NCBI GenBank assembly: GCA_005889345.1
Contig: VBFR01000183.1
Coordinates: 1,315-65,314, forward strand
DNA from: Chloroflexota bacterium
Lineage (GTDB): Bacteria; Chloroflexota; Dormibacteria; CF-121
DNA length: 64,000 nt
Reading direction: 5' to 3'
Shown in pieces: positions 1 to 42,493 of this stretch; position 1 is the first letter of the stretch; each line of letters opens with the position of its first letter. The notes beneath the pieces are model-generated. The model searched no databases, was not told the origin of the DNA, and saw only the letters and a program-made list of their open reading frames with translations. A program made the position numbers and the translations under genes.

Positions 1-744
1 CGCAAGCCGAAGGCTCTCGTGGTGGCGACCGATGAAGACTGGCGGCCGGCCTTTCGCGTGGACGTGATCGCGAGTTACAAGACGGATCGCCTCGAGCGCG
101 GCGCCATGCCACCGGAGCTCCAGCCCCAGGAGCCGATCATCCATGCGGTCCTCCACGCGATTGGCGTCGAGGTGTTGGGAGCGGCAGGTTTCGAGGCCGA
201 AGACGTGATCGCCTCTCTGCTGCCGAAGATCAGCGGCAAGGTCGAGATCGTGACCGGCGACCGCGACCTCTTTTCGCTGGTGCGCGATCCGGATGTGACC
301 GTGCTCTACACGCAGAAGGGAATCGGCAACCTTCTAGTCGTCGATGAGGCGGAGGTCGAGCGCCGCTACGGCATCCCCGGTCGTTCGTACGGCGACTACG
401 CGGTGCTGCGCGGCGATCCGTCGGACGGGCTGCCCGGTGTGCCCGGCGTGGGGGAGAAGACGGCCGCCCAGCTGGTGCGTCGTTTCAAGGACCTCGACGG
501 GATCATCGCCAGCGGCAAGCTGGGTGATGTCGCCAACGCCTACATCCAGCGGGCACGCCGGGTCGGCGTCCCGGTCGGGATAGCCCCGGTCGCAAAACCG
601 AACGGGACGCGGCCTGCGGCACCCAAGGATCCGGTAGCGCTGGCAAAACTGACGGAAACCTATGGCATCGGCTCGTCGATCGACCGGCTGGTTCGAGCGC
701 TGGCCGGACCCCAGCCCCGAATCGTTGATACGCTTGGCGCGTGA
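1..744 (+). CDS. 5'-3' exonuclease (FEN/PolI N-terminal-like, standalone); 5' end lies outside the window
   Basis: H3TH motif GVPGVGEKTAAQLV and acidic active-site segments (VTGDRDLFSLV). The frame is open from base 1. It ends TGA 742-744, overlapping the next gene's GTG. Confidence 0.8.
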   Translation, partial: RKPKALVVATDEDWRPAFRVDVIASYKTDRLERGAMPPELQPQEPIIHAVLHAIGVEVLGAAGFEAEDVIASLLPKISGKVEIVTGDRDLFSLVRDPDVTVLYTQKGIGNLLVVDEAEVERRYGIPGRSYGDYAVLRGDPSDGLPGVPGVGEKTAAQLVRRFKDLDGIIASGKLGDVANAYIQRARRVGVPVGIAPVAKPNGTRPAAPKDPVALAKLTETYGIGSSIDRLVRALAGPQPRIVDTLGA

Positions 745-1010
745 TCGATCCCAAGCACCGCGTCACGATCGAATACTGCGTTCCCTGAAACTACCTCGAC
801 CAAGCCGTCGGTCTGGCGGCTGAGATCCTCGGGGCCTGGGCCCCGGTGATGATCGATGTGTCGCTGCGCACGGGGAGCAAGGGGCGCTTCGAGGTCACGC
901 TCGACGACCAGATGATCTTCAGCAAGGTCAAGTTGCATCGGTTTCCAAAGCGTGGTGAGATCCTCAAGCTCGCCGAGCCGGTGCTCGGACCGCCAATCGC
1001 CTGGCGCTAG
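741..1010 (+). CDS. SelW/Rdx-family selenoprotein (89 aa) with in-frame UGA (Sec) at 786-788 in a CxxU motif
   Basis: Translates as VIDPKHRVTIEYCVP-U-NYLDQAVGLAAEILGAW...GRFEVTLDDQMIFSKVKLHRFPKRGEILKL, which fits the Rdx fold signature (beta-strand, then CxxU, then a GxFEV...F.K.....P motif). GTG 741 is the first start after the in-frame stop at 726-728. It is missing from the ORF track because of the TGA. Confidence 0.65.
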
Positions 1011-6828: not shown

Positions 6829-7929
6829 CTAGTCAGGACTGCCCCAGCTCGCCGGCTTCAGGTCGATGCCATCGGGAATGAAGAGCAAACCGTCGGTGCG
6901 GCCGCGGCGATCGTCGACGCCGTATTGCCAGACGATCTTGTTCGTCTTTGGATCGATGACGATCACCCGGTTACGAAAGTCGTCGTTGAGCGCGATGTCG
7001 CCATTACCGAGGGCGATTGCGAGCGATGGGTGGTCGAGCATCCCCGGGCCGAAGCGGGGCGCATAACGCCAGACCGGCTGTCCCTTTGGGGTCATGATCA
7101 GGATCTGTCCGGGTCGGGCGTAATCGACCAGGAGGATGTTCCCGTCCGGCAGCATCTGCGCATCGGATGGATACTGAATGCCTGGTGCCCGGGTCGTCCA
7201 GTAGAGGGTGCCGTCCCAGCCGACCTCGCTAACCCAGGCGCCCAGGATCTCCGTGATCAGGACGTGGCCGTTCGCCAGCGGCGTGTCGCCGTTGGGCAGG
7301 CCGAAGGTCTTTGGCGGGTTGTGGGCGCAGTAGCCGGTCCGACCAAGTTGGGTCTTGATGGTTTTCGTGTCGTGATCGATGAGGATCACGCGGCAGTTGC
7401 GAATGTCCGCAACCCCAACGTTGCCGTCGGGCCACATGTAGGCGTCGTCCGGGCCATTGAGAAAGCCCCTGGCCGAGCCGTGGCGCTCGGACACGCCGTA
7501 TTGCCAGTCGATCCGATGGCTGGCGTAATCGACCAGCACGACCGCGTGCGACTCCTCCTCGTTGATGACGATCGATTTCCCGTCGGGGGCGTAGAAGGCG
7601 TCGTCGGGCCAGCGGAATCGCTCACCGGGCTGCAAATCGCCCGGCCGTGGGAATTCCCAGACGATCTTGCGGTCGGGCGTCACCTCGATCACGCGGTTGT
7701 TGGCGCGGTCGGCGATCAGCAGGTTGGCGGGCATCACGCCTGGGGCCGCAGTCGGCGGCGGTGCCGGCGTTGTCGCCGGGACCGGTGAGGGTGGTGGAAG
7801 CTCCTCGGCTTGCTGCGCCGCCTTCTGCGGCGCTGCTGCTGGGGATGAGCCGGAACAGCCCGCCAGGGCAAGGAAAAACGTCGCGAAGAGCGGCAGGACC
7901 GATAAGAACCTCTTAAGGAATGCCGCCAC
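6829..7929 (-). CDS. lipoprotein with beta-propeller (PQQ/ASST-like) repeats
   Basis: Lipobox LALAGCSG, a Pro-rich linker, and repeated NNRVIEV...KIVWEF / NRVIVIDPKTNKIVWQYG blades. Confidence 0.65.
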   Translation of the reverse strand: MAAFLKRFLSVLPLFATFFLALAGCSGSSPAAAPQKAAQQAEELPPPSPVPATTPAPPPTAAPGVMPANLLIADRANNRVIEVTPDRKIVWEFPRPGDLQPGERFRWPDDAFYAPDGKSIVINEEESHAVVLVDYASHRIDWQYGVSERHGSARGFLNGPDDAYMWPDGNVGVADIRNCRVILIDHDTKTIKTQLGRTGYCAHNPPKTFGLPNGDTPLANGHVLITEILGAWVSEVGWDGTLYWTTRAPGIQYPSDAQMLPDGNILLVDYARPGQILIMTPKGQPVWRYAPRFGPGMLDHPSLAIALGNGDIALNDDFRNRVIVIDPKTNKIVWQYGVDDRRGRTDGLLFIPDGIDLKPASWGSPD

Positions 7930-8041
7930 GCTACCGCGAAGTATAGGTATTCTGAAATCGGCCCAAGGCGCCGCACGTTTGGCAATAGGAAATCGCCTCG
8001 AGGTCCACGCGGTTTGCTACTGTGAAATCGAGGGCTCGATC

Positions 8042-8173
8042 ATGGGATTCACGAGCAAGCCTGTCAGGGTCATCGAAATACCGGAACCGGTGTCGGAGCC
8101 GTTGCTTGCCCCCGAGAGCGAGCCGCAGCGCACCGAGAGGGAAGAAGAGGTTCCGGTTACAACTCCGGCATGA
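8042..8173 (+). CDS. small acidic Pro/Glu-rich ORF (43 aa), overlapping the next gene by ATGA
   Basis: MGFTSKPVRVIEIPEPVSEPLLAPESEPQRTEREEEVPVTTPA; preceded by a GAGGG RBS-like stretch. The call rests on coupling only. Confidence 0.35.
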   Translation: MGFTSKPVRVIEIPEPVSEPLLAPESEPQRTEREEEVPVTTPA

Positions 8174-8766
8174 TCCCGGCGGTGGGTTACCGCTTCTGGC
8201 GGGTGGACCCTGACGATGCCTGGACGCGCGGCCGCTTGCAATCGCCCGTGGCGGAGACGCTCTGGCCGCCCCTGGACCGGCTCGACGCGGAGTGTCAAAC
8301 GCGTCCTGGTCTCCGTCTCGCCCGCGCCGGACTGCACCGCCACGACGAGGAGCGGATGTCGCCGGAGCCGGCGTGCAGCTGCGGCATCTATGCCTACCAC
8401 GACATCGCGCCCATGACTCGCGCGTTACGCGAGGAGCCCTATATGTTCGGTGGCGCCGTGCTGTGCTGGGGACGGATCGTGATCCATCCTGAGGGGCTGC
8501 GCGCCCAACACGCGCGGCCGCTGGCCCTCTGCCGGCCGGAAAGCCCGGGCGTGCAACAACGGACCGCTCTCCTTCTCCGCGAGGTCACCAGGGAGTATGC
8601 GATCCCCTTGCTCGAGCTCCGCGACCTGGTGGCGTACGCGAGCGAGTTCGGCGCCAGTTACAAGCCGGAACCGATTCCGCCGTCACGACGGGGCCTGGCG
8701 CGGGTCAGAGACGCCCTCTCCTGGCGTCAGATGCGACACCGACTGGGTAAAGCGTTCGGCGGGTAG
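8170..8766 (+). CDS. hypothetical Cys-containing protein (198 aa)
   Basis: Good codon bias, motifs ACSCGIYAYHD and VLCWGRIVIHPEG; I recognise no family. Confidence 0.5.
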   Translation: MIPAVGYRFWRVDPDDAWTRGRLQSPVAETLWPPLDRLDAECQTRPGLRLARAGLHRHDEERMSPEPACSCGIYAYHDIAPMTRALREEPYMFGGAVLCWGRIVIHPEGLRAQHARPLALCRPESPGVQQRTALLLREVTREYAIPLLELRDLVAYASEFGASYKPEPIPPSRRGLARVRDALSWRQMRHRLGKAFGG

Positions 8767-8787
8767 ACCCCGCTCGACGGTCGTCCG

Positions 8788-10695
8788 TCAGCCGGCCGAA
8801 ACCGCGATTTGGTCGAAGGCCGGGGAGTTCGCGAACTGATCGAATGAATAGCTGATCCGCGGTGGTACGACTTGAACCACGTTCTCGACAGCGTACGGTG
8901 CGATGGGCACGACGTTCTCCATGAGGTACATGTCGAGCTCGGTCCAACACTGCCTCTGTCGATCGCTACTCAGCAAACACTCGTGAATTCGGCTATCGAC
9001 GCCCGGAACGCTCGACACGCCATAGCCCCATTGGCGCAGTTGGGCGGGCGTTGCTCCGATCAGCGTATGGCGACACCAGGGGTTGCAGGCGGTGACCCGC
9101 GTTTCAGCTGTCGCTGGGGCGGTGAAAGCCGGACTCAAAACCGACGATGCGCTCAAGTAGCTCTTTCCCCCACCCATCGTGAGCACGAGAGGCACTTTGC
9201 GTGTGGGGTCGCTGGCCAAACCCTGGACGTCCTTGGGGGTCTGGACGTCAAGGACAATGCCGATTTGGTTGAGGTCGTCGGCGATGATCGATCCCATCTG
9301 AAGAAATACCGGCCCTCCCTGGGCGGCAACCGAATTGATCGCGAGTGCGAGAACGTGCTTGCATTCCGGCGCATCGCACATTCCGTTGTGGTCGCGGTCG
9401 TAGCGAGACTGTCTTATCTCCTGCATCGCCAGGTCCAGGTTGCCCCGGTAATCGGCGGTCCGGTAGGGGTCGTAGCTGGCCAGGGCGTTATTCTCCAGAC
9501 TGTCCGGGGCGATGTGCGTGGCGATCGTGGCGCCCAGGCCGCCACCGTAGCTGTCGACGAGGGCTCGCTTGTTGATGACGTAATTCACCGCCTTGCGGAC
9601 ATGGATATCGTCGAAGGGCGGAACCGCGAGGTTCATGCTGATATACCTGAAGCTGTCCCTTGAGCTCACCTTCACCTCGCCCAGCGCTCGGTTGGCGCGC
9701 ACCTTGTCGACCAGCCACGATTGCACCTGGAACGGAGGGCTTGGCAGCCAGACGAGATCGGCCTGGCGGCTTTCCCACAGGTGAGCCGCCTCATCGCGCG
9801 ACATGCCGATCGTGATCCGCATCTCATCGAGGTAGGCCGGTCGCAGCGGATCCGTTGCCGGCTTCCACGACGGATTGCGCACCAGCGTCAGGGACGAACC
9901 CGGGACAAAGCCGGAGACCGGTCTCTGCTTGTCTGGGGCGAGCTTGAAGTCGAGTTGCGGGCTGCCCTTGATCATGTAGGGCCCGGACGCGACCAGGAAG
10001 CGCCCAAAACCGCTATCGTGTCCGGTCGCCACGCCGTACGCGGCGGCTGCGTCAGGGGAAGGCGGGATGGGGGCACTGTTTGAAAGGGTAAAGCGATAGG
10101 GCAGGTCACTGGCCGGCTGATTGAGCCGAACCCTCAGGGTGTACGGGTTGGGGGTCTCGAGACCGGAGATGGTGGTCGTCTTCCCTTCACGGTACTGGTC
10201 AAACCCGTCGATGACGGAGTACACCCACGCCTGGCCGTTCGGGACGCGGGCCTCTCGCTGCATGGCCCTGACGAAGTCGGCCGCGAGGATTTCCCGATCG
10301 ATCGGCGGCGCATACTTGATTCCAGGGCGAATCCGGAATGTCCACGTCAGGGAATCCGCTGAGACGTCCGGCATGGCGAGCGCCAGGTCGGGGTGGAGTT
10401 CGGCGCCACCGTCCTGCGCCGGACGACCTGGGTAGGAAAAGAGCGTCCGTAGCAAGCAGCAGCGAAACAGTTCGGCAGAGTCGAGCCAGGTGTTGACCTG
10501 AGGGTCCAGGCCGTCCGCTTTTGGTGTGGGAAAGGTGAGCTCCGAGCCATTCCAGCTCGGCATCACCACCGTCAATACTCCGCCGCGAGCAGGGCCGGGG
10601 GTCGGCCGCGAGCCCGTTGCAGGGGCCGGATCACAGGCTGAGGCGACGACGGCCAGTACGCCGGCGAGCAGTGCCACCCTCGGGCTAGCTGCCAT
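8788..10695 (-). CDS. ABC transporter substrate-binding lipoprotein, family 5 (peptide/nickel, DppA/OppA-like)
   Basis: Lipoprotein signal MAASPRVALLAGVLAVVASAC and SBP_bac_5-like architecture. The start is set at 10695 because the upstream minus-strand gene ends at 10685. No permease or ATPase genes are nearby. Confidence 0.75.
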   Translation of the reverse strand: MAASPRVALLAGVLAVVASACDPAPATGSRPTPGPARGGVLTVVMPSWNGSELTFPTPKADGLDPQVNTWLDSAELFRCCLLRTLFSYPGRPAQDGGAELHPDLALAMPDVSADSLTWTFRIRPGIKYAPPIDREILAADFVRAMQREARVPNGQAWVYSVIDGFDQYREGKTTTISGLETPNPYTLRVRLNQPASDLPYRFTLSNSAPIPPSPDAAAAYGVATGHDSGFGRFLVASGPYMIKGSPQLDFKLAPDKQRPVSGFVPGSSLTLVRNPSWKPATDPLRPAYLDEMRITIGMSRDEAAHLWESRQADLVWLPSPPFQVQSWLVDKVRANRALGEVKVSSRDSFRYISMNLAVPPFDDIHVRKAVNYVINKRALVDSYGGGLGATIATHIAPDSLENNALASYDPYRTADYRGNLDLAMQEIRQSRYDRDHNGMCDAPECKHVLALAINSVAAQGGPVFLQMGSIIADDLNQIGIVLDVQTPKDVQGLASDPTRKVPLVLTMGGGKSYLSASSVLSPAFTAPATAETRVTACNPWCRHTLIGATPAQLRQWGYGVSSVPGVDSRIHECLLSSDRQRQCWTELDMYLMENVVPIAPYAVENVVQVVPPRISYSFDQFANSPAFDQIAVSAG

Positions 10696-26374: not shown

Positions 26375-27286
26375 GAAGGGGTGCCCACGGTTATAACATG
26401 CCCACCATTGCCAGAGGTATCCAACGGGCGGGCGAACCTGCACCTGCACACGATCTTCAGCGACGGTGAGCTCACACCTGCAGAGGTTGTCGCGGCTCAC
26501 GCCGCCGCGGGGTTCGACGTCATCGCCCTCACCGACCACGACACGCTGGCCGGGATCGATGCCCTCGCCAGCCTGGAGGGCCACGGCCTGCGGATGATCT
26601 CAGGCGTCGAGCTGTCGATCGAAGATGAACCCGGTCGCGGCCTGGTCGACGCCCATCTACTCGGCTACGGCTTTGCCCTCAACAACCGGCGGCTACGCAA
26701 CCGCCTGCATCAAGCGAGCGAGGCGCGCGAGGCGCAGAAACGGCAAACGGTCGACCGGCTGGCGGCGGCCGGCTACCGGGTGACATGGGAGGCGGTGCGC
26801 GCCGGCGCGCGTGGCAACGTCGGCAAGCCCCATATCGTGGCGGCCATCGAGGCAATGCAGCCGGGCGTGGCGCGCGAAGAGTTGTACGCCGTGATGGGAC
26901 CAGGTGGGGCGGCACATGTTCCGCGCGCCACTGAGATGTCGTTGGATGAGGCCGTGGATATGGTGACGGCGGCGGGAGGCGTCACCGTGCTCGCGCACCC
27001 GGGAGTCTACCGTCATGTGCGCGACCTGCAGGTACTGTTTCGGGCGTGCGCTGTGGCAGGGGTGCTTGGGCTGGAGGTCACCTATCCGCAGGCACCCGAT
27101 GACCCCTATGGGCCGAAGAGTGCCGCGTTGATGGATCGTTTCCAGAAGGTCGCGGCCTCCTACGGTTGGGTGGCAACCGGCGGCGACGACTTCCATGGGC
27201 CTCGCGTCACACCGCTTATCCGATTGGCCGCCTGGACCGCCACGCCGGCGGCCGTTGCCGACCAGGTGCTCGCCCGCCGCAGCTAG
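26351..27286 (+). CDS. PHP-domain phosphoesterase (TrpH/YciV-like)
   Basis: NLHLHTIFSDGELTPAEVVAAHAAAGFDVIALTDHDT. The start may be GTG 26378 or TTG 26405 rather than 26351. Confidence 0.7.
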   Translation: MRLAVRAHEGVPTVITCPPLPEVSNGRANLHLHTIFSDGELTPAEVVAAHAAAGFDVIALTDHDTLAGIDALASLEGHGLRMISGVELSIEDEPGRGLVDAHLLGYGFALNNRRLRNRLHQASEAREAQKRQTVDRLAAAGYRVTWEAVRAGARGNVGKPHIVAAIEAMQPGVAREELYAVMGPGGAAHVPRATEMSLDEAVDMVTAAGGVTVLAHPGVYRHVRDLQVLFRACAVAGVLGLEVTYPQAPDDPYGPKSAALMDRFQKVAASYGWVATGGDDFHGPRVTPLIRLAAWTATPAAVADQVLARRS

Positions 27287-28719
27287 CGCGTCGTCAGAAA
27301 CCGCGTGATGGCCTCGGCGACGGCGTCGGGCCGATCGAGCGGTAGGAAGTGCCCACCGGGATCGATGATCTCAACCGTGCTTTCCCGAAGCTTGTGGTGG
27401 AGCGTTTCGGCCCAGCGCGGCTCGAGGAATGCATCGTTTGCTCCCCACAGGATTAACGTCGGCGTCTCGACCTCATCGATGTGCTTCGACCGGCTGGTTA
27501 GATCGCGGTTGTTGAGCGCCCGCGCCGCCCGCAGGTAGGCGCGCCGGCCGCCCAGGTCCTGGAAGGGTCGCGTCCACTCGTCAACCACCTCATCGTTGAC
27601 CCGACCGGGCGTCACCATCCCGGCCTCAAGGCCCTTGCGGAGCCCGCTGCGAAGATCGATGTTGACCATGATCTGATCCCACGCCGGCTCTTTCAGACGC
27701 GCGATGTCGGGGATTGGCCAGTTGTTGTCGACGATGCTGTCGATCAAGATGAGGCGGGCTACCCGCTGAGGTTCGTCGACGGCCATCAGTTGGGCGACAC
27801 CGCCGCCGATGTCGTGGCCCGCCACGGCCGCCTGGTGCACCCCGATCGTTTCCATGAAGGCCACCACATATCGGGCTTGTGCCGCGATTGAAAGATCGAC
27901 GTCCATGCGCTTGTCCGAGTCGCCGTAGCCGAGCAGGTCGGGCGCCAGCACCTCGAAGGTTGCGGACAGCGGCTCGATGACATCGCGCCAGAGATACGAG
28001 GAGCTCGGAATCCCGTGCAGCAAAACCAGCGGTGGACCCTGTCCCGTTCGGAGGTAGGCGATATCGCCCGCAAAGGTCCGGATCTTCCGTTTGCTGCGGG
28101 CGAGTGGCGCCATCCCGATGAGCTCGGTCGTCATTGGCGGCGATACCGTCGGCGTGGGCGCCCGCTCCAGGGCCGACGGCGGAGCGGCAAAGCGCGCGGG
28201 AGCTTGTGCAGTTGCCACGGCCGGTTCCTGCGGCGATGCCGGCAAGGCAGCATCGGTGGACGGCGCGACTCGCCGAGTGAGGATGACGTTTGTCGAGCTG
28301 GCGCGGGCGATCAGCTGGTTCTGCTGGTCGACGATCTCCGCCTCAGCCACTGCGATCTGCTGCCCGCGATGCACGACGCGGCCTATCGAGCGCAGCATGC
28401 CGGAATCGGCGGTCACGGCCTTGAGGAAATTGACGTGAAGCTCCGCGGTCGTGAAGTTCTCTCCCGGGAGAAGCGTGCTGAACACCGCGAACCCCATGGC
28501 GCTGTCGGCGAGTGACGCGAGCGCGCCCCCGTGAACGACGTTGTTCGGGTTGTACAACTCGGTGGTCGCCGGCATCTCGAAGGTCGCGCCGCCATCGGAG
28601 ACGGCGATGAAGCGCATGCGCAGGAGGCGAACGTAGGGCGGAGGGGGCGCAGCTCCACGCAGCGCGGCCTCGAGCAATTCGCGACCTGACATCTCTGCCG
28701 GGTCCGACATTGCCCGCAT
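27283..28719 (-). CDS. fusion protein: PaaI-type hotdog thioesterase (N-terminus) + alpha/beta-hydrolase fold (C-terminus)
   Basis: NVVHGGALASLADSAMGF hotdog motif, an Ala/Pro linker, then VLLHGIPSSSYLWRDV...AGHDIGGGVAQ. Confidence 0.7.
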   Translation of the reverse strand: MRAMSDPAEMSGRELLEAALRGAAPPPPYVRLLRMRFIAVSDGGATFEMPATTELYNPNNVVHGGALASLADSAMGFAVFSTLLPGENFTTAELHVNFLKAVTADSGMLRSIGRVVHRGQQIAVAEAEIVDQQNQLIARASSTNVILTRRVAPSTDAALPASPQEPAVATAQAPARFAAPPSALERAPTPTVSPPMTTELIGMAPLARSKRKIRTFAGDIAYLRTGQGPPLVLLHGIPSSSYLWRDVIEPLSATFEVLAPDLLGYGDSDKRMDVDLSIAAQARYVVAFMETIGVHQAAVAGHDIGGGVAQLMAVDEPQRVARLILIDSIVDNNWPIPDIARLKEPAWDQIMVNIDLRSGLRKGLEAGMVTPGRVNDEVVDEWTRPFQDLGGRRAYLRAARALNNRDLTSRSKHIDEVETPTLILWGANDAFLEPRWAETLHHKLRESTVEIIDPGGHFLPLDRPDAVAEAITRFLTTR

Positions 28720-37309: not shown

Positions 37310-37684
37310 GTGTTCGGCATGGAAGACCAAGGCCAGGAGGGTCCTGCGATGCGTGTTATCGATGTCGTCAACGAGGCAAAGGCTGCGATGCGGGCGTCCG
37401 AAGTCTTCGGCACCCCCTACGAAAAGAATGGGATCACGATCATCCCTGCGGCGAAGATCGCCGGAGGCGCCGGTGGTGGGGGTGACCAGGCCCAGCCTCA
37501 GGCCGGCGGAGTTGGCTTCGGCGTGTCCTCGCGGCCGGTTGGCGCCTTCGTGATCAAAGGCGACGAGGTGAGCTGGCAGCCGGCCCTCGACCTGAATCGA
37601 ATCATCCTGATGGGACAGGTCGTCGCGATCGTGGCGCTGCTGACCGCGCGCGCGATCGTGAAAGTGGCCGCGAAGCGCCGTTGA
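37310..37684 (+). CDS. YtfJ/GerW family protein
   Basis: GITIIPAAKIAGGAGGGGDQ...GVGFGVSSRPVGAFVIKGDEV pattern. Confidence 0.65.
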   Translation: MFGMEDQGQEGPAMRVIDVVNEAKAAMRASEVFGTPYEKNGITIIPAAKIAGGAGGGGDQAQPQAGGVGFGVSSRPVGAFVIKGDEVSWQPALDLNRIILMGQVVAIVALLTARAIVKVAAKRR

Positions 37685-38928
37685 TGGCGACGGCGATCGA
37701 CGTCGACCTGCAGTCCGTTCGCCGTCAGTTCCCCTCACTCGCTCTCACGATCGACGGTGAGCCAGTCGTCTACCTCGACAATCCCGCCGGGACCCAGGTG
37801 CCGCAGCGCGTCATCGACCGCACCGCCGACTACTGGCGGACGATGAATGCCAACCAGGGCAGCGTCTTTCCGACCAGCCGGCGGTCGGATGCCCTGATCG
37901 CGCAAGTTCGTGAGGCGGCCGCGACCTTCCTCAACGCTGCCTCTGCGGACGAGATCGTCTTCGGACCGAACATGACGACGCTGACGTTCGCGTTCAGCCG
38001 CGCGATCGGGCGCGAGCTACGGCCGGGCGACGAGATCGTCGTCACCCGGCTCGACCACGATGGGAACGTCTCGCCCTGGCTGGCACTTCAGGAGCTCGGC
38101 GTAAGCGTGCGCTTCGTCGACATCAAGGTCCCTGAGTGCACGCTCGACATGAGCGATCTGCATCGCCAGCTGACGCCGCGCACGCGGTTGGTGGCGGTGA
38201 CGCACGCGTCGAATGTTGTGGGCAGCATCCCCGATCTTGCGGCGGTTGCGCGCGCGGCCCACGCTGCAGGCGCCTGGGTATGGGTTGATGCGGTTCACTA
38301 CGGGCCGCACGGACCGATCGATGTCCGCGCCATCGACTGCGACTTTCTTGTCTGTTCGAGCTACAAGTTCTTCGGTCCGCACCAGGGGATTCTCTACGGA
38401 CGCCGGGAGCTGCTGCAGCGCCTGCGTCCCTACAAGGTCCGGCCGGCGAGCGACGAGGTGCCGACGCGCTGGGAGACCGGAACACAAAACCACGAGTGTC
38501 TCGCCGGGCTCCTCGGCGCCTTCGAGTACCTGGCGGCGATCGGTGGCGACGACCGGGTGCGGCGGCCGGCGCTGGAAGCGGCGATGGATCGCATCCGCCG
38601 CCACGAGCGGGCCCTGGTGGCCCGCCTGATCGACGGCCTGCAGCAGATTCCTGGGATCGCGATCTACGGCATCACGGCGCCGGCGGAGCTCGATCACCGG
38701 GTGCCAACCGTGTCGCTGACCTGGCTGCCGCATCGACCCGAGGCCCTGGCGGGCTGGCTGGCCAGCCACCAGGTTTTTGCGACCCATGGCGACCACTACG
38801 CGACCGAGCTGATCACGAGACTGAAACTCGTGGACGACGGCGGCACGCTGCGCATCGGCATCGCCCACTACAACACGGCGAGCGAGATCGACCTCGTGCT
38901 GGAACTACTCGCCGGTTTCCGCGGGTAG
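37681..38928 (+). CDS. cysteine-desulfurase-like class V aminotransferase (PLP-dependent)
   Basis: Aminotransferase class V fold; the PLP Lys lies in SSYKFFGPHQGILYG. Confidence 0.8.
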   Translation: MMATAIDVDLQSVRRQFPSLALTIDGEPVVYLDNPAGTQVPQRVIDRTADYWRTMNANQGSVFPTSRRSDALIAQVREAAATFLNAASADEIVFGPNMTTLTFAFSRAIGRELRPGDEIVVTRLDHDGNVSPWLALQELGVSVRFVDIKVPECTLDMSDLHRQLTPRTRLVAVTHASNVVGSIPDLAAVARAAHAAGAWVWVDAVHYGPHGPIDVRAIDCDFLVCSSYKFFGPHQGILYGRRELLQRLRPYKVRPASDEVPTRWETGTQNHECLAGLLGAFEYLAAIGGDDRVRRPALEAAMDRIRRHERALVARLIDGLQQIPGIAIYGITAPAELDHRVPTVSLTWLPHRPEALAGWLASHQVFATHGDHYATELITRLKLVDDGGTLRIGIAHYNTASEIDLVLELLAGFRG

Positions 38929-40906: not shown

Positions 40907-42493
40907 CTAGCCGATCAGCTCGCGGATCAAGGGGATCGGCATGGCCCCGCAACCGAGAAAGGCATCGTGGAACGCCTTCAGCGTAAACCCGGGGCGGCGC
41001 TGCAGGTCCTTGCGCAGTTCGAGGATCAGCAGTTTGCCCAGCGTGTAGTTCAGGTACATCGGATCCCAGGCGCCGCGCGTCGCCTCGCGGGTGGCGGGCA
41101 GCTCCGTCATGTATCCGACGGACTTGAACAGGTCAATGGCGTCCGCCATCGCCATCCCCTGGCAGTGCAGGCCGAGGGCGACGAGGAATCGGCAGTCGCG
41201 CAGCAGTGCCTCGAGGCGCTGAGCCAGCAACTGCATCGGGTCGGCAGAATAGCCGATCTCCAGCATCATCTCTTCAACGTAGTGGGCAAAGCCTTCGCCT
41301 GTGCTGTACGTCCAGAACAGTTGACGCGTCGGCGATGTGGCCTGCCGCTCGAACAGACCCTGGACGTAATGGCCTGGATACGCCTCGTGGATCGAGGTGC
41401 CTTCCATCGTGGCGTAATTCATGTAGCGCAACCATTCCTCGCTTTTGGCCGCATCCCAGTCGGCGCGGGGGACCGTCACCCAGTAGTAGCTGTCGGTGGC
41501 GACGGTTTCGAGCGGTCCGGCGCTGTCCATGGCGGCGCTGATATAGGCGGCATAGGACGGCGTGGGTTGGACCAGGCAGCGGCCATCACTAGGAAGCGAC
41601 ACGACGTCGCGCTCCACGAGAAAAGCGCGAAGGCGGCCCAGCATCGCGGTCACGTCGGCGATGATCGAGGTCGCGCTCGGGTGGTGATCCTCCAGGCGCG
41701 TCACCGCGCCCTGGACGCCGGCCCCGGGTGCGATCTGCTCGGCTGCCGCTTCGGCGGCGGCACGATTGCGGTCGATGTCGGCGCGCACCATGCGTTCGAG
41801 CGCAGGGACGTCGAGCTGCACGAATTCGCGCAAGTCCAGCAGGCGGAGGAAGTGGTCCGTGCCGAGGGCATAGGCGTCGTCGGCCGTCGCGACCCTCGCC
41901 TGCAGTCCAACGCCAAAATCTCGCAGTTGGGTGCTGGCCACCTCGATGGCCTTGAGCGTTTCTGCGTGGCCGGCGGCGGCGGCACGGACTTCACCGTCGA
42001 GGTACGCGACCTGGCCGTCGACCGCCTCGATCGCGATCTCGAGGTTGGGGCGCGGCAGCACCGCCTCCAGGTTGTCGCGGGCCGCCTCGAGGAAGCCGCC
42101 GTACCCGAGCAGATGGCGGCGAAGCGCCGCGAAGCGGTCCTCCAGCGGGGCGTACGGCCGCTTCACGTAAAAGCTGACGTCCAGCTCACTGGGTCCGGCG
42201 TAGAACATCGGCTCACGAAATGGCAGCCGTAACTCCGTGAGCTCGAAACGGGCGGCCTCGAGCTGGGCGACGAGCGCGCGGCGGTCGATCGCCTGGCCAG
42301 GATCGAGTCCCATCACCGCGCCGATCGTGGAGAGGTCGCGGTCGATTTCCGCCACGCGAGCGCGTATCGCGGTCCTGGAAAGATCGCCGACCACGCCGTC
42401 GAACCGGTGATCTCCGACGTAGCGGGCGTGGGTCGGCGAAAAGCGCAAGAAGCCATCGATCACCTTCCGCTCGACGGCCGGCCATTCCCCCAC
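40907..42493 (-). CDS. DUF885-family putative metallopeptidase
   Basis: HEAYPGHYVQ (HExxPGH) motif and size about 530 aa. Confidence 0.6.
   Translation of the reverse strand: MGEWPAVERKVIDGFLRFSPTHARYVGDHRFDGVVGDLSRTAIRARVAEIDRDLSTIGAVMGLDPGQAIDRRALVAQLEAARFELTELRLPFREPMFYAGPSELDVSFYVKRPYAPLEDRFAALRRHLLGYGGFLEAARDNLEAVLPRPNLEIAIEAVDGQVAYLDGEVRAAAAGHAETLKAIEVASTQLRDFGVGLQARVATADDAYALGTDHFLRLLDLREFVQLDVPALERMVRADIDRNRAAAEAAAEQIAPGAGVQGAVTRLEDHHPSATSIIADVTAMLGRLRAFLVERDVVSLPSDGRCLVQPTPSYAAYISAAMDSAGPLETVATDSYYWVTVPRADWDAAKSEEWLRYMNYATMEGTSIHEAYPGHYVQGLFERQATSPTRQLFWTYSTGEGFAHYVEEMMLEIGYSADPMQLLAQRLEALLRDCRFLVALGLHCQGMAMADAIDLFKSVGYMTELPATREATRGAWDPMYLNYTLGKLLILELRKDLQRRPGFTLKAFHDAFLGCGAMPIPLIRELIG

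Follow-up and report, generated by a model that had tools for sequence, protein, structure and literature searches.

The locus at positions 741–1010 of the forward strand raises the question whether a TGA codon inside a short reading frame marks a broken gene or is translated. Within the 64-kb window, by which we mean the whole stretch of 64,000 nucleotides that was analysed (GC content 67%), the frame runs from a GTG start (741–743) through a TGC codon for Cys13 (777–779) and the TGA at codon 16 (786–788) to a TAG stop (1008–1010), giving 89 sense positions. GTG741 is the sole start codon between an in-frame stop at 726–728 and the CxxU motif. Translating through the TGA yielded VIDPKHRVTIEYCVP*NYLDQAVGL...GRFEVTLDDQMIFSKVKLHRFPKRGEILKL..., which reproduces exactly the product quoted in the preliminary description of this DNA. 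Since four samples that were assembled independently all gave the window sequence at positions 701–1010, an assembly error at 741–1010 can be excluded. We consider it highly likely that the locus is a complete and functional SelW-like gene of 89 residues from a soil-dwelling member of Candidatus Dormibacterota, and that UGA codon 16 is decoded as selenocysteine (Sec). That is, we are very probably dealing with an ordinary gene for a small redox protein, in which UGA encodes selenocysteine.

The read-through product had been proposed to belong to the Rdx/SelW family, with a Pfam profile search as the suggested check. When this search was run, the product reached 68.7 bits for Rdx (PF10262; cutoff 22.6) and aligned to profile positions 1–71 of 74, a similarity beyond chance (E = 4.9e-19). 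The fragment following the UGA scored 35.9 bits when searched alone, which shows that the codons upstream of the UGA are part of the Rdx domain. The product also scored 56.2 bits against NCBIfam TIGR02174 (CXXU_selWTH, cutoff 34.2), while for the narrower equivalog NF041051 (SelTWH_Campy) it remained at 79.1 bits, below the threshold of 88. Solved structures of homologues with Cys in place of Sec agree with both family profiles, and the family assignment is thus upheld. These structures, SAV_2001 (3DEX), Atu0228 (2FA8), 2OBK, 2OKA, 2OJL and 2P0G, share the same domain over residues 3–80 (E = 1e-9 to 8e-9), and by homology to them (E = 1e-9) we infer a thioredoxin-like fold for the product.

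Within this domain, the CxxU motif C13-V-P-U16 follows RVTIEY near the N-terminus, past the predicted first beta strand. In alignments, it falls on CTQC of 3DEX and 2FA8 and on CVPC of the Cys-encoding relatives P0011 and L034; IEYCVP-U of the window is matched by IEYCtqC in the two structures. The UGA therefore occupies the second redox position, as had been claimed, facing a Cys in all four. A Cys13-x-x-Sec16 redox centre would lie at the start of the first helix, where it would be expected to cycle between the selenolate/thiol and selenenylsulfide states; we infer both Sec as the inserted residue and this redox chemistry.

TGA was retained at this position in 41 of the 43 homologous sequences tabulated, which come from at least seven phyla, and the 41 loci share the same architecture. 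Hosts of the TGA form were Dormibacterota, Acidimicrobiales, Nitriliruptorales, Anaerolineales, Chloroflexia, Acidobacteriota, Gemmatimonas and Thermoanaerobaculia. Orthologues with Cys at the UGA position, named in the preliminary description as the observation that would confirm recoding, do exist: L034, L046 and P0011/L004 carry TGC or TGT instead. Cys13 itself was invariant across all loci, with synonymous variation between TGC and TGT. Among the 14 codons upstream of the TGA, the third position varied in all 14, the first in 7 and the second in 4, and codon differences comprised 1723 synonymous versus 1234 non-synonymous changes. Compared to the downstream part of the gene (1571 synonymous versus 2132 non-synonymous), these upstream codons are held more tightly. 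Thus, the 14 codons preceding the UGA are under purifying selection at the protein level, and selection is seen on both sides of the UGA.

A hairpin at 803–821 (AGCCGUC-GGUCU-GGCGGCU, with the 5′ arm at 803–809, the apical loop at 810–814 and the 3′ arm at 815–821) begins 14 nt past the UGA. It lies where a bacterial SECIS element is expected, as had been pointed out, but its loop, previously given as GGUCUGG, is better read as GGUCU. The proposed bSECISearch-type scan was run as a re-implementation of published criteria (PMC13188914), which ask for an apical loop of 3–9 nt on an upper stem of 4–16 bp, G at the first two loop positions, a UGA-to-loop distance of 16–37 nt and a minimum free energy (MFE) of −7.5 kcal/mol or lower. 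All four properties were found in the hairpin, which folds with a 5 nt loop, a 7 bp stem, a spacing of 21 nt and −10.5 kcal/mol. However, 13% of all TGA trinucleotides in this GC-rich window satisfied the identical single-sequence test, and the MFE z-score of the hairpin in its context was only −0.69. Taken alone, the hairpin thus exceeds chance weakly, and its significance comes from comparative data.

In this comparison, explicit pair counts showed the core stem to be paired in at least 95% of 38 distinct sequences, versus 15–58% in slid controls. One stem pair was never broken, occurring as UG, UA or CG, and double compensatory changes were present in L040 and L044. Covariation was modest: the majority of stem pairs do not vary at all, and in distant phyla the outer two frequently fail to pair. 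We relied on pair counts since the RNAalifold consensus contained only the innermost three of the 7 pairs. Codons within the hairpin are near-fixed at their synonymous sites (Gly, for example, is GGT in 31 of 35 cases in GC-rich genomes), whereas equally conserved residues further downstream vary freely at theirs. Cys forms are devoid of the hairpin, and the Cys-form structures have A-A-W-L-A or A-G-W-M-A where Sec forms encode A-V-G-L-A over it. Because the SECIS sits within the coding sequence, the peptide A-V-G-L-A at residues 22–26 is forced. Rfam returned no family at gathering thresholds for the whole window, nor at E ≤ 10 for positions 700–1100; its sole match, a miRNA, was dismissed as chance. 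Another hairpin at about 825–850 folds in the window but is not conserved in relatives, and we consider it outside the SECIS element. In the mechanism we propose, the GGUCU-loop hairpin would recruit SelB-GTP-Sec-tRNA(Sec) with the ribosome positioned at the UGA or close to it, and Sec would be inserted in place of termination.

Might the gene instead be decaying? A Cys codon (TGC or TGT) may have mutated to TGA, so that translation stops after 15 residues and leaves at most a 53-residue fragment starting from ATG849. A single base separates the codons, the 53-residue frame is reported by gene callers and reaches its 35.9 bits to Rdx unaided, and no Sec machinery was encountered in the window and about 660 kb of related loci. 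Against this stands the identical TGA throughout the phyla listed above, together with the in-frame purifying selection that still acts on the upstream codons of a supposedly dead reading frame. Moreover, the fragment would do without the first strand and the CxxU centre, both of which lie within the fold of the solved homologues, and ATG849 is not conserved as a start, the products called in relatives being 53, 61, 65 or 71 residues long. We regard a pseudogene as extremely improbable. The same evidence bears on the annotation, as the gene had been described as unannotated and missed by ORF callers. This does not apply to the gene as such, since the 53-residue fragment (849–1010, ATG start after the UGA) is called with a Pfam Rdx match, its exact product on 20 contigs; it does apply to the 36-residue N-terminus, which is lost from the called fragment together with the active site. 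Most database relatives are likewise truncations of 53–71 residues, and relatives have been named “selT/selW/selH-like putative selenoprotein” or “selenoprotein” (JGI, NCBI).

If the UGA is translated, it could still be read as Trp, Cys or Gly, through near-cognate or suppressor decoding or under a reassigned code, without any Sec. DNA does not reveal which residue is inserted, the Sec machinery of the host is itself presumed, and our literature search gave no paper that links Dormibacterota with selenoproteins. Yet ordinary termination in the window relies on TGA more often than on any other stop codon: it ends 9 of the 18 Pfam-supported genes, and we conclude that the standard genetic code is used here. 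The position is also the catalytic Cys/Sec site of a family with well-documented Sec forms, and generic readthrough would have no need for a conserved GGUCU-loop hairpin that is kept at the canonical SECIS distance and is gone in Cys forms. Insertion of a standard residue is therefore very unlikely in our view.

Regarding decoding as Sec, ARAGORN found no tRNA of any kind, and hence no tRNA-Sec, either in the window or in 44 related loci, and a re-run on 727 kb had the same outcome. Among the 20 largest ORFs of the window, none was identified by Pfam as selA, selB or selD. Searching the 727 kb (the window plus the related loci) by tblastn with approximate E. coli SelA, SelB and SelD queries gave one match, in L025 (7330–9183, minus strand), which we rejected as SelB since it is TypA/BipA (TIGR01394, 819 bits). 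These absences say little, because the DNA covered is a small fraction of a genome; the host genome presumably encodes the Sec machinery. A screen of the window for a second selenoprotein, defined by CxxU or UxxC with a SECIS-like hairpin and open flanking frames, yielded none that would independently corroborate Sec use; four other sites that passed the screen were rejected as Arg-rich out-of-frame translations. GC3 was of no help as a gene caller, since at 67% GC it does not tell sense from antisense frames.

How the gene is expressed is a separate question. The 3′ part of a 5′–3′ exonuclease gene occupies positions 1–744 of the plus strand (ORF 19–744), and its TGA stop (742–744) overlaps the GTG start in the tetranucleotide GTGA. 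In contigs of identical sequence the upstream ORF matches 5_3_exonuc_N and 5_3_exonuc; in L047–L050 the gene encodes 297 residues with PF02739 and PF01367. The preliminary description took the overlap as translational coupling to the exonuclease. GTGA is indeed present in this species, both in the window and in the same-species contigs L047–L050, and also in L007, but it is not a conserved arrangement, as most relatives have DUF4260 upstream and no overlap. In L001 and L002 the upstream gene is called as DUF4260, with 12 nt between its stop and the start codon, and most other relatives share this upstream DNA. In 24 of the 25 Dormibacterota-type loci, with any upstream gene, we found a TANNNT hexamer with variable NNN that ends 6–12 nt before the start, and no Shine-Dalgarno sequence; in four loci, where the gap is 11–12 nt, a short leader would remain. 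The hexamer of the window is the −10-like TACGCT (729–734), a putative leaderless promoter located within the final part of the exonuclease ORF. It is separated from GTG741 by 6 nt, neither GGAG nor GAGG occurs within 20 nt, and the gene thereby shows the configuration taken to define leaderless genes of the Actinobacteria type (TANNNT about 6–8 nt upstream, no Shine-Dalgarno sequence). Two further window genes have the TANNNT arrangement at candidate starts, versus a background rate of 0.7% for TANNNT in the window. More distant loci mostly carry a GGAGG-type Shine-Dalgarno sequence, and the Actinomycetota loci L029 and L033 display the same TANNNT-start geometry in unrelated contexts.

Since relatives keep TANNNT without a Shine-Dalgarno sequence whatever gene lies upstream, the comparison suggests that the gene may have its own promoter and a leaderless mRNA. 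Scanning positions 600–1200 for full −35/−10 sigma-70 promoters and for terminators found none, and the argument from TANNNT is thus a purely comparative one. The empty promoter scan would also suit a gene that lacks its own promoter and whose translation is coupled to the exonuclease gene through termination-reinitiation at GTGA, under which the missing Shine-Dalgarno sequence is tolerable as well; in the window, the overlap would permit such coupling. We think this unlikely in view of L001 and L002, where TANNNT is kept at the same distance in the absence of any overlap, and of the unrelated contexts in L029 and L033; the two other window genes with TANNNT point in the same direction. Transcription would probably start from the gene's own TANNNT −10 element and give a leaderless mRNA beginning at the GTG, and coupling to the exonuclease would not be needed.

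Selenoproteins of the SelW-like CxxU type form a well-established family that is abundant in bacteria (PMC1088965, PMC9312934), with bacterial members reported by Zhang and Gladyshev (PMC1088965, PMC1794560, PMC2398784) and listed in PMC9312934. The family has been known since about 2005, and descriptions of its motif and SECIS type go back some twenty years. The locus poses no new question on selenocysteine biology. Known members share with the window gene a length of about 90 residues, a single Rdx domain, an N-terminal CxxU with Sec in second place and a SECIS hairpin just downstream inside the coding sequence, and their Cys homologues are rare. There is no architectural difference between them and the window gene, whose start context is of the leaderless type. 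The Cys-form structures differ in having Cys for Sec, with CTQC versus CVPU in the window. Mammalian selenoprotein W, SelT, SelH, SelV and Rdx12 belong to the same Rdx fold family and carry the CxxU motif, but the eukaryotic proteins depend on a 3′-UTR SECIS with SBP2 and eEFSec, whereas the window gene has a bacterial-type SECIS inside its ORF. The prototype of the bacterial element is the SECIS of E. coli fdhF, in which SelB contacts the G-G-U-C of the loop. Both hairpins follow soon after the UGA within the ORF and have a small G-G-U-C loop at a spacing of 16–37 nt (model of PMC13188914). Compared to fdhF, the window hairpin has a shorter stem (7 bp, with a possible 3-bp extension) and no evident bulged U, and binding of SelB to it is putative.

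The gene is systematically mis-annotated in the clade, where dozens of database fragments of 53–71 residues lack the active site. As a consequence, the selenoprotein, together with the need for selenium that it implies, is missing from protein catalogues, from alignments of the family and from inferences about the metabolism of Dormibacterota and several further soil phyla. For teaching, the locus also illustrates cleanly how a SECIS inside a coding sequence freezes synonymous sites and dictates A-V-G-L-A. The literature searched held no papers on selenocysteine or selenoproteins in Dormibacterota, and the main text of BSepDB does not mention the phylum. We can only tentatively suggest, and with considerable reserve, that the locus is the first concrete evidence for UGA as a Sec codon in Candidatus Dormibacterota, a largely uncultured soil phylum, and this on a leaderless mRNA. 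If true, the Sec trait would reach further across the phylogeny than is known so far. The 5′ end of the mRNA would then be separated from the Sec codon by just 45 nt and from the SECIS by just 62 nt, so that a 70S ribosome initiating on the leaderless message would meet the SelB-SECIS complex almost at once, and the gene would provide a natural minimal test of how close a SECIS can be to the start of a leaderless transcript.

The SelW-like gene occupies positions 741–1010 on the forward strand of the window and reads GTG...TGC GTT CCC TGA AAC TAC...TAG, with the in-frame TGA at 786–788 (+) as codon 16. Its product is VIDPKHRVTIEYCVP up to the TGA and NYLDQAVGLAAEILGAWAPVMIDVSLRTGSKGRFEVTLDDQMIFSKVKLHRFPKRGEILKLAEPVLGPPIAWR from there to the stop codon; coordinates and read-through translation match the preliminary description exactly. 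GTG741 is the sole start codon between an in-frame stop (726–728) and the Cys codon, and relatives start with ATG or GTG. With U entered as C, the 89-residue product matched the Pfam Rdx profile (PF10262) with 68.7 bits (E = 4.9e-19, profile positions 1–71 of 74), and it passed NCBIfam TIGR02174 "CXXU_selWTH" (56.2 bits, cutoff 34.2), confirming the proposed Rdx/SelW membership. Since the fragment 3' of the TGA reached only 35.9 bits against Rdx (profile positions 32–71), the codons 5' of the TGA belong to the domain. The narrower Campylobacter-type equivalog NF041051 was not reached by the product (79.1 bits, cutoff 88). The closest solved structures are the bacterial Cys-form Rdx proteins SAV_2001 (3DEX, E = 1.1e-9) and Atu0228 (2FA8), whose IEYCtqC pairs residue for residue with IEYCVP-U of the window gene.

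TGA was found at the codon-16 position in 41 of 43 tabulated homologous sequences. MAGs with the TGA form are labelled Dormibacterota (or old-style "Chloroflexi CF_"), Acidimicrobiales, Nitriliruptorales, Anaerolineales, Chloroflexia, Acidobacteriota, Gemmatimonas and Thermoanaerobaculia. Orthologues encoding Cys at this position, proposed earlier as a check, exist in three cases: the loci L034 (CVPC) and L046, and the database protein P0011 (locus L004; full-length, 96 aa, RVTIEYCVPC). A sequencing or assembly error at the TGA is ruled out, as 701–1010 is identical in four independent assemblies from four samples. So is a reassigned genetic code, with 9 of the 18 Pfam-supported window genes ending in TGA. 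A pseudogene, finally, is ruled out by the TGA conservation, the Cys homologues and the coding signature of the 14 codons from start to TGA. Here, all 14 third positions vary, compared to seven first and four second positions, and codon differences are mostly synonymous (1,723 versus 1,234 non-synonymous; 1,571 versus 2,132 in the part 3' of the TGA). That is, these codons bear the signature of translated sequence, under tighter constraint than the undisputed downstream part. Two loci are frameshifted or interrupted 3' of the motif, L042 (10046–10262, Actinomycetota, TGA form) and L046 (10034–10236, Chloroflexia, Cys form); these are either pseudogenes or indel errors in MFD-series MAGs.

A hairpin, AGCCGUC-GGUCU-GGCGGCU, lies at 803–821 (+), and scanning the stretch 3' of the UGA placed it within all four criteria of the bacterial SECIS model (PMC13188914, Fig. 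2A). The apical loop comprises 5 nt (required 3–9 nt) and begins with GG (at least one G required in the first two positions), the upper stem 7 bp (4–16 bp) and the UGA-to-loop spacing 21 nt (16–37 nt), with a minimum free energy of -10.5 kcal/mol (at most -7.5 kcal/mol). On its own, this single-sequence evidence is weak: in our own implementation, 13% of the 1,608 TGA trinucleotides of the window also pass, and the local fold shows no stability excess over shuffles (z = -0.69). The weight of the SECIS case is carried by comparative evidence. In an ungapped alignment of the 41 TGA-bearing loci (38 distinct sequences), the five inner stem pairs form in at least 95% of distinct sequences. Pair 23–31 is unbroken throughout, as U-G (26), U-A (8) or C-G (4), and L040 and L044 carry double compensatory stem changes. 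When the 3' arm was slid by 1–3 columns as a control, pairing fell from 88% to 15–58%. Within the hairpin, synonymous sites hardly vary (GCC 36/41, GTC 35/36 Val, CTG 36/40 Leu, GCG 32/33 Ala), and its Gly codon is GGT in 31 of 35 Gly, a disfavoured codon in GC-rich genomes. Equally conserved residues beyond the hairpin vary freely at synonymous sites (Ala18 GCG/GCC/GCA, Pro19 CCC/CCG). The hairpin is absent from all three Cys forms. For the most part, stem pairs are invariant and do not covary; the two outer ones are often open in distant phyla, RNAalifold recovered just three pairs, and an Rfam search returned no matching family.

At window positions 804–818 (codons 22–26; alignment columns 19–33), Sec forms predominantly read A-V-G-L-A/T in all sampled phyla; the Cys forms P0011 and L034 and the structures 3DEX and 2FA8 have other residues there. 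The peptide across the hairpin is dictated by the RNA element: the SECIS constrains the protein sequence. Directly 3' of the SECIS, a second GC-rich hairpin (GGGGCC...GGCCCC, 825–850) folds in the window; it is probably incidental, given its lack of conservation among relatives and its overlap with the conserved LGAWAP peptide.

Bacterial selenoproteins are encoded by a conserved in-frame UGA at the Cys/Sec redox site with a hairpin of this kind behind it (PMC1088965). Given this established encoding, family membership, the conserved TGA and the SECIS evidence make it well supported and highly probable that the gene encodes a SelW-like selenoprotein by means of a recoded UGA and a SECIS, with the Sec machinery inferred. 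The gene had been thought to be missed by ORF callers, which is not so: callers truncate it. On 20 metagenome contigs the called product is exactly the 53 aa of 849–1010, with a Pfam Rdx match, and nearly all of the 120 database relatives listed are fragments of 53, 61, 65 or 71 aa starting 3' of the TGA. Many already carry the name "selT/selW/selH-like putative selenoprotein" (JGI), "SelT/SelW/SelH family protein" or "selenoprotein" (NCBI). The called fragments lack the first 36 residues and with them the CxxU centre.

The 64-kb window contains no tRNA genes, and SelA, SelB and SelD are not among its 20 largest ORFs. ARAGORN detected no tRNA or tmRNA in window 1–64000 plus the fetched loci L001–L053 (727 kb in total, a small syntenic genome fraction), where tblastn with approximate E. 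coli SelA and SelD queries gave no match either. Since this DNA represents a small, syntenic fraction of the genomes, the searches are uninformative rather than negative. Zero tRNA or tmRNA genes in 727 kb is fewer than expected for bacterial DNA; either assembly breaks at tRNA loci or the extensive synteny among the fetched regions may account for this. The single SelB-like tblastn match, in L025, a Dormibacterota MAG, at 7330–9183 (-), is the translational GTPase TypA/BipA and so not SelB; it is encoded on the strand opposite the SelW-like gene, some 700 nt upstream of it. Screening the window for a second selenoprotein gene yielded no credible candidate. The window also encodes a class-V aminotransferase at 37681–38928 (+) (Aminotran_5, 234.8 bits), from a family with cysteine desulfurases and selenocysteine lyases among its members; a tie to selenium metabolism is possible, if unsupported.

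Translational coupling to the upstream exonuclease, as previously suggested, needs correction. The GTGA overlap is real: GTG741 overlaps the stop TGA (742–744) of an ORF that in identical-sequence contigs encodes 297 aa with both 5'-3' exonuclease domains. The overlap occurs in the window, L007 and same-species contigs; there (window 700–745, L007, L047–L050) the exonuclease frame continues into it with the segment TGATACGCTT kept, and a DUF4260 gene is absent. However, L001 and L002 carry a DUF4260 gene (9536–9934 in each) between exonuclease and SelW-like gene, ending 12 nt before the SelW-like start, and most other relatives share this type of upstream DNA, with a -10-like TANNNT hexamer kept. 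TANNNT ends 6–12 nt before the start codon in 24 of 25 Dormibacterota-type loci (for example TACGCT, TAGGCT, TAAGCT, TATAGT, TATATT, TACCCT or TAGCCT), which have no Shine-Dalgarno sequence at this start. More distant loci mostly have a GGAGG-type Shine-Dalgarno at 4–9 nt without TANNNT; the TANNNT geometry recurs in two Actinomycetota loci (L029, L033) in unrelated contexts. In the window, the hexamer at 729–734 (+) is a candidate promoter element, and just 0.7% of all ATG/GTG have TANNNT 6–8 nt upstream. A sigma-70 scan of 600–1200 found no full promoter. Because TANNNT about 7 nt upstream of the start codon is a hallmark of leaderless transcripts in Actinobacteria and Deinococcus, an own -10 element (729–734) with a leaderless mRNA seems more likely than obligatory coupling. 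Two other Pfam-supported window genes have TANNNT 6–8 nt before candidate starts that lack a Shine-Dalgarno (27283–28719 (-) and 40907–42493 (-)), and others have a Shine-Dalgarno. With the hexamers ahead of the SelW-like start at 729–734 and in L001–L036, this suggests that the organism mixes leaderless and Shine-Dalgarno-led genes.

The closest loci share 80–94% amino-acid identity with the window gene and point to soil Candidatus Dormibacterota as host lineage. Two contigs labelled otherwise, L006 (DATNNA010000030.1, Candidatus Binatus sp., 94% identical protein) and L012 (DATNMH010000068.1, Candidatus Acidoferrum sp., 85%), have Dormibacterota-type upstream DNA in common, and mis-binning or a wrong label is probable. 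With 48 genes, SelW-like CxxU proteins topped the selenoprotein families of the Sargasso Sea data set in abundance (PMC1088965); they also ranked among the most abundant in GOS data and count as an established prokaryotic family (pfam10262, CxxU; PMC9312934). The window gene has every defining feature of the family testable here, and the Sec:Cys ratio of 41:3 agrees with the few Cys homologues known from Sec-using organisms (PMC1794560). Our literature search on Candidatus Dormibacterota and selenoproteins found no paper linking phylum and trait. The Dormibacterota SelW-like gene is a modest range extension of a well-known family, not a new kind of system.
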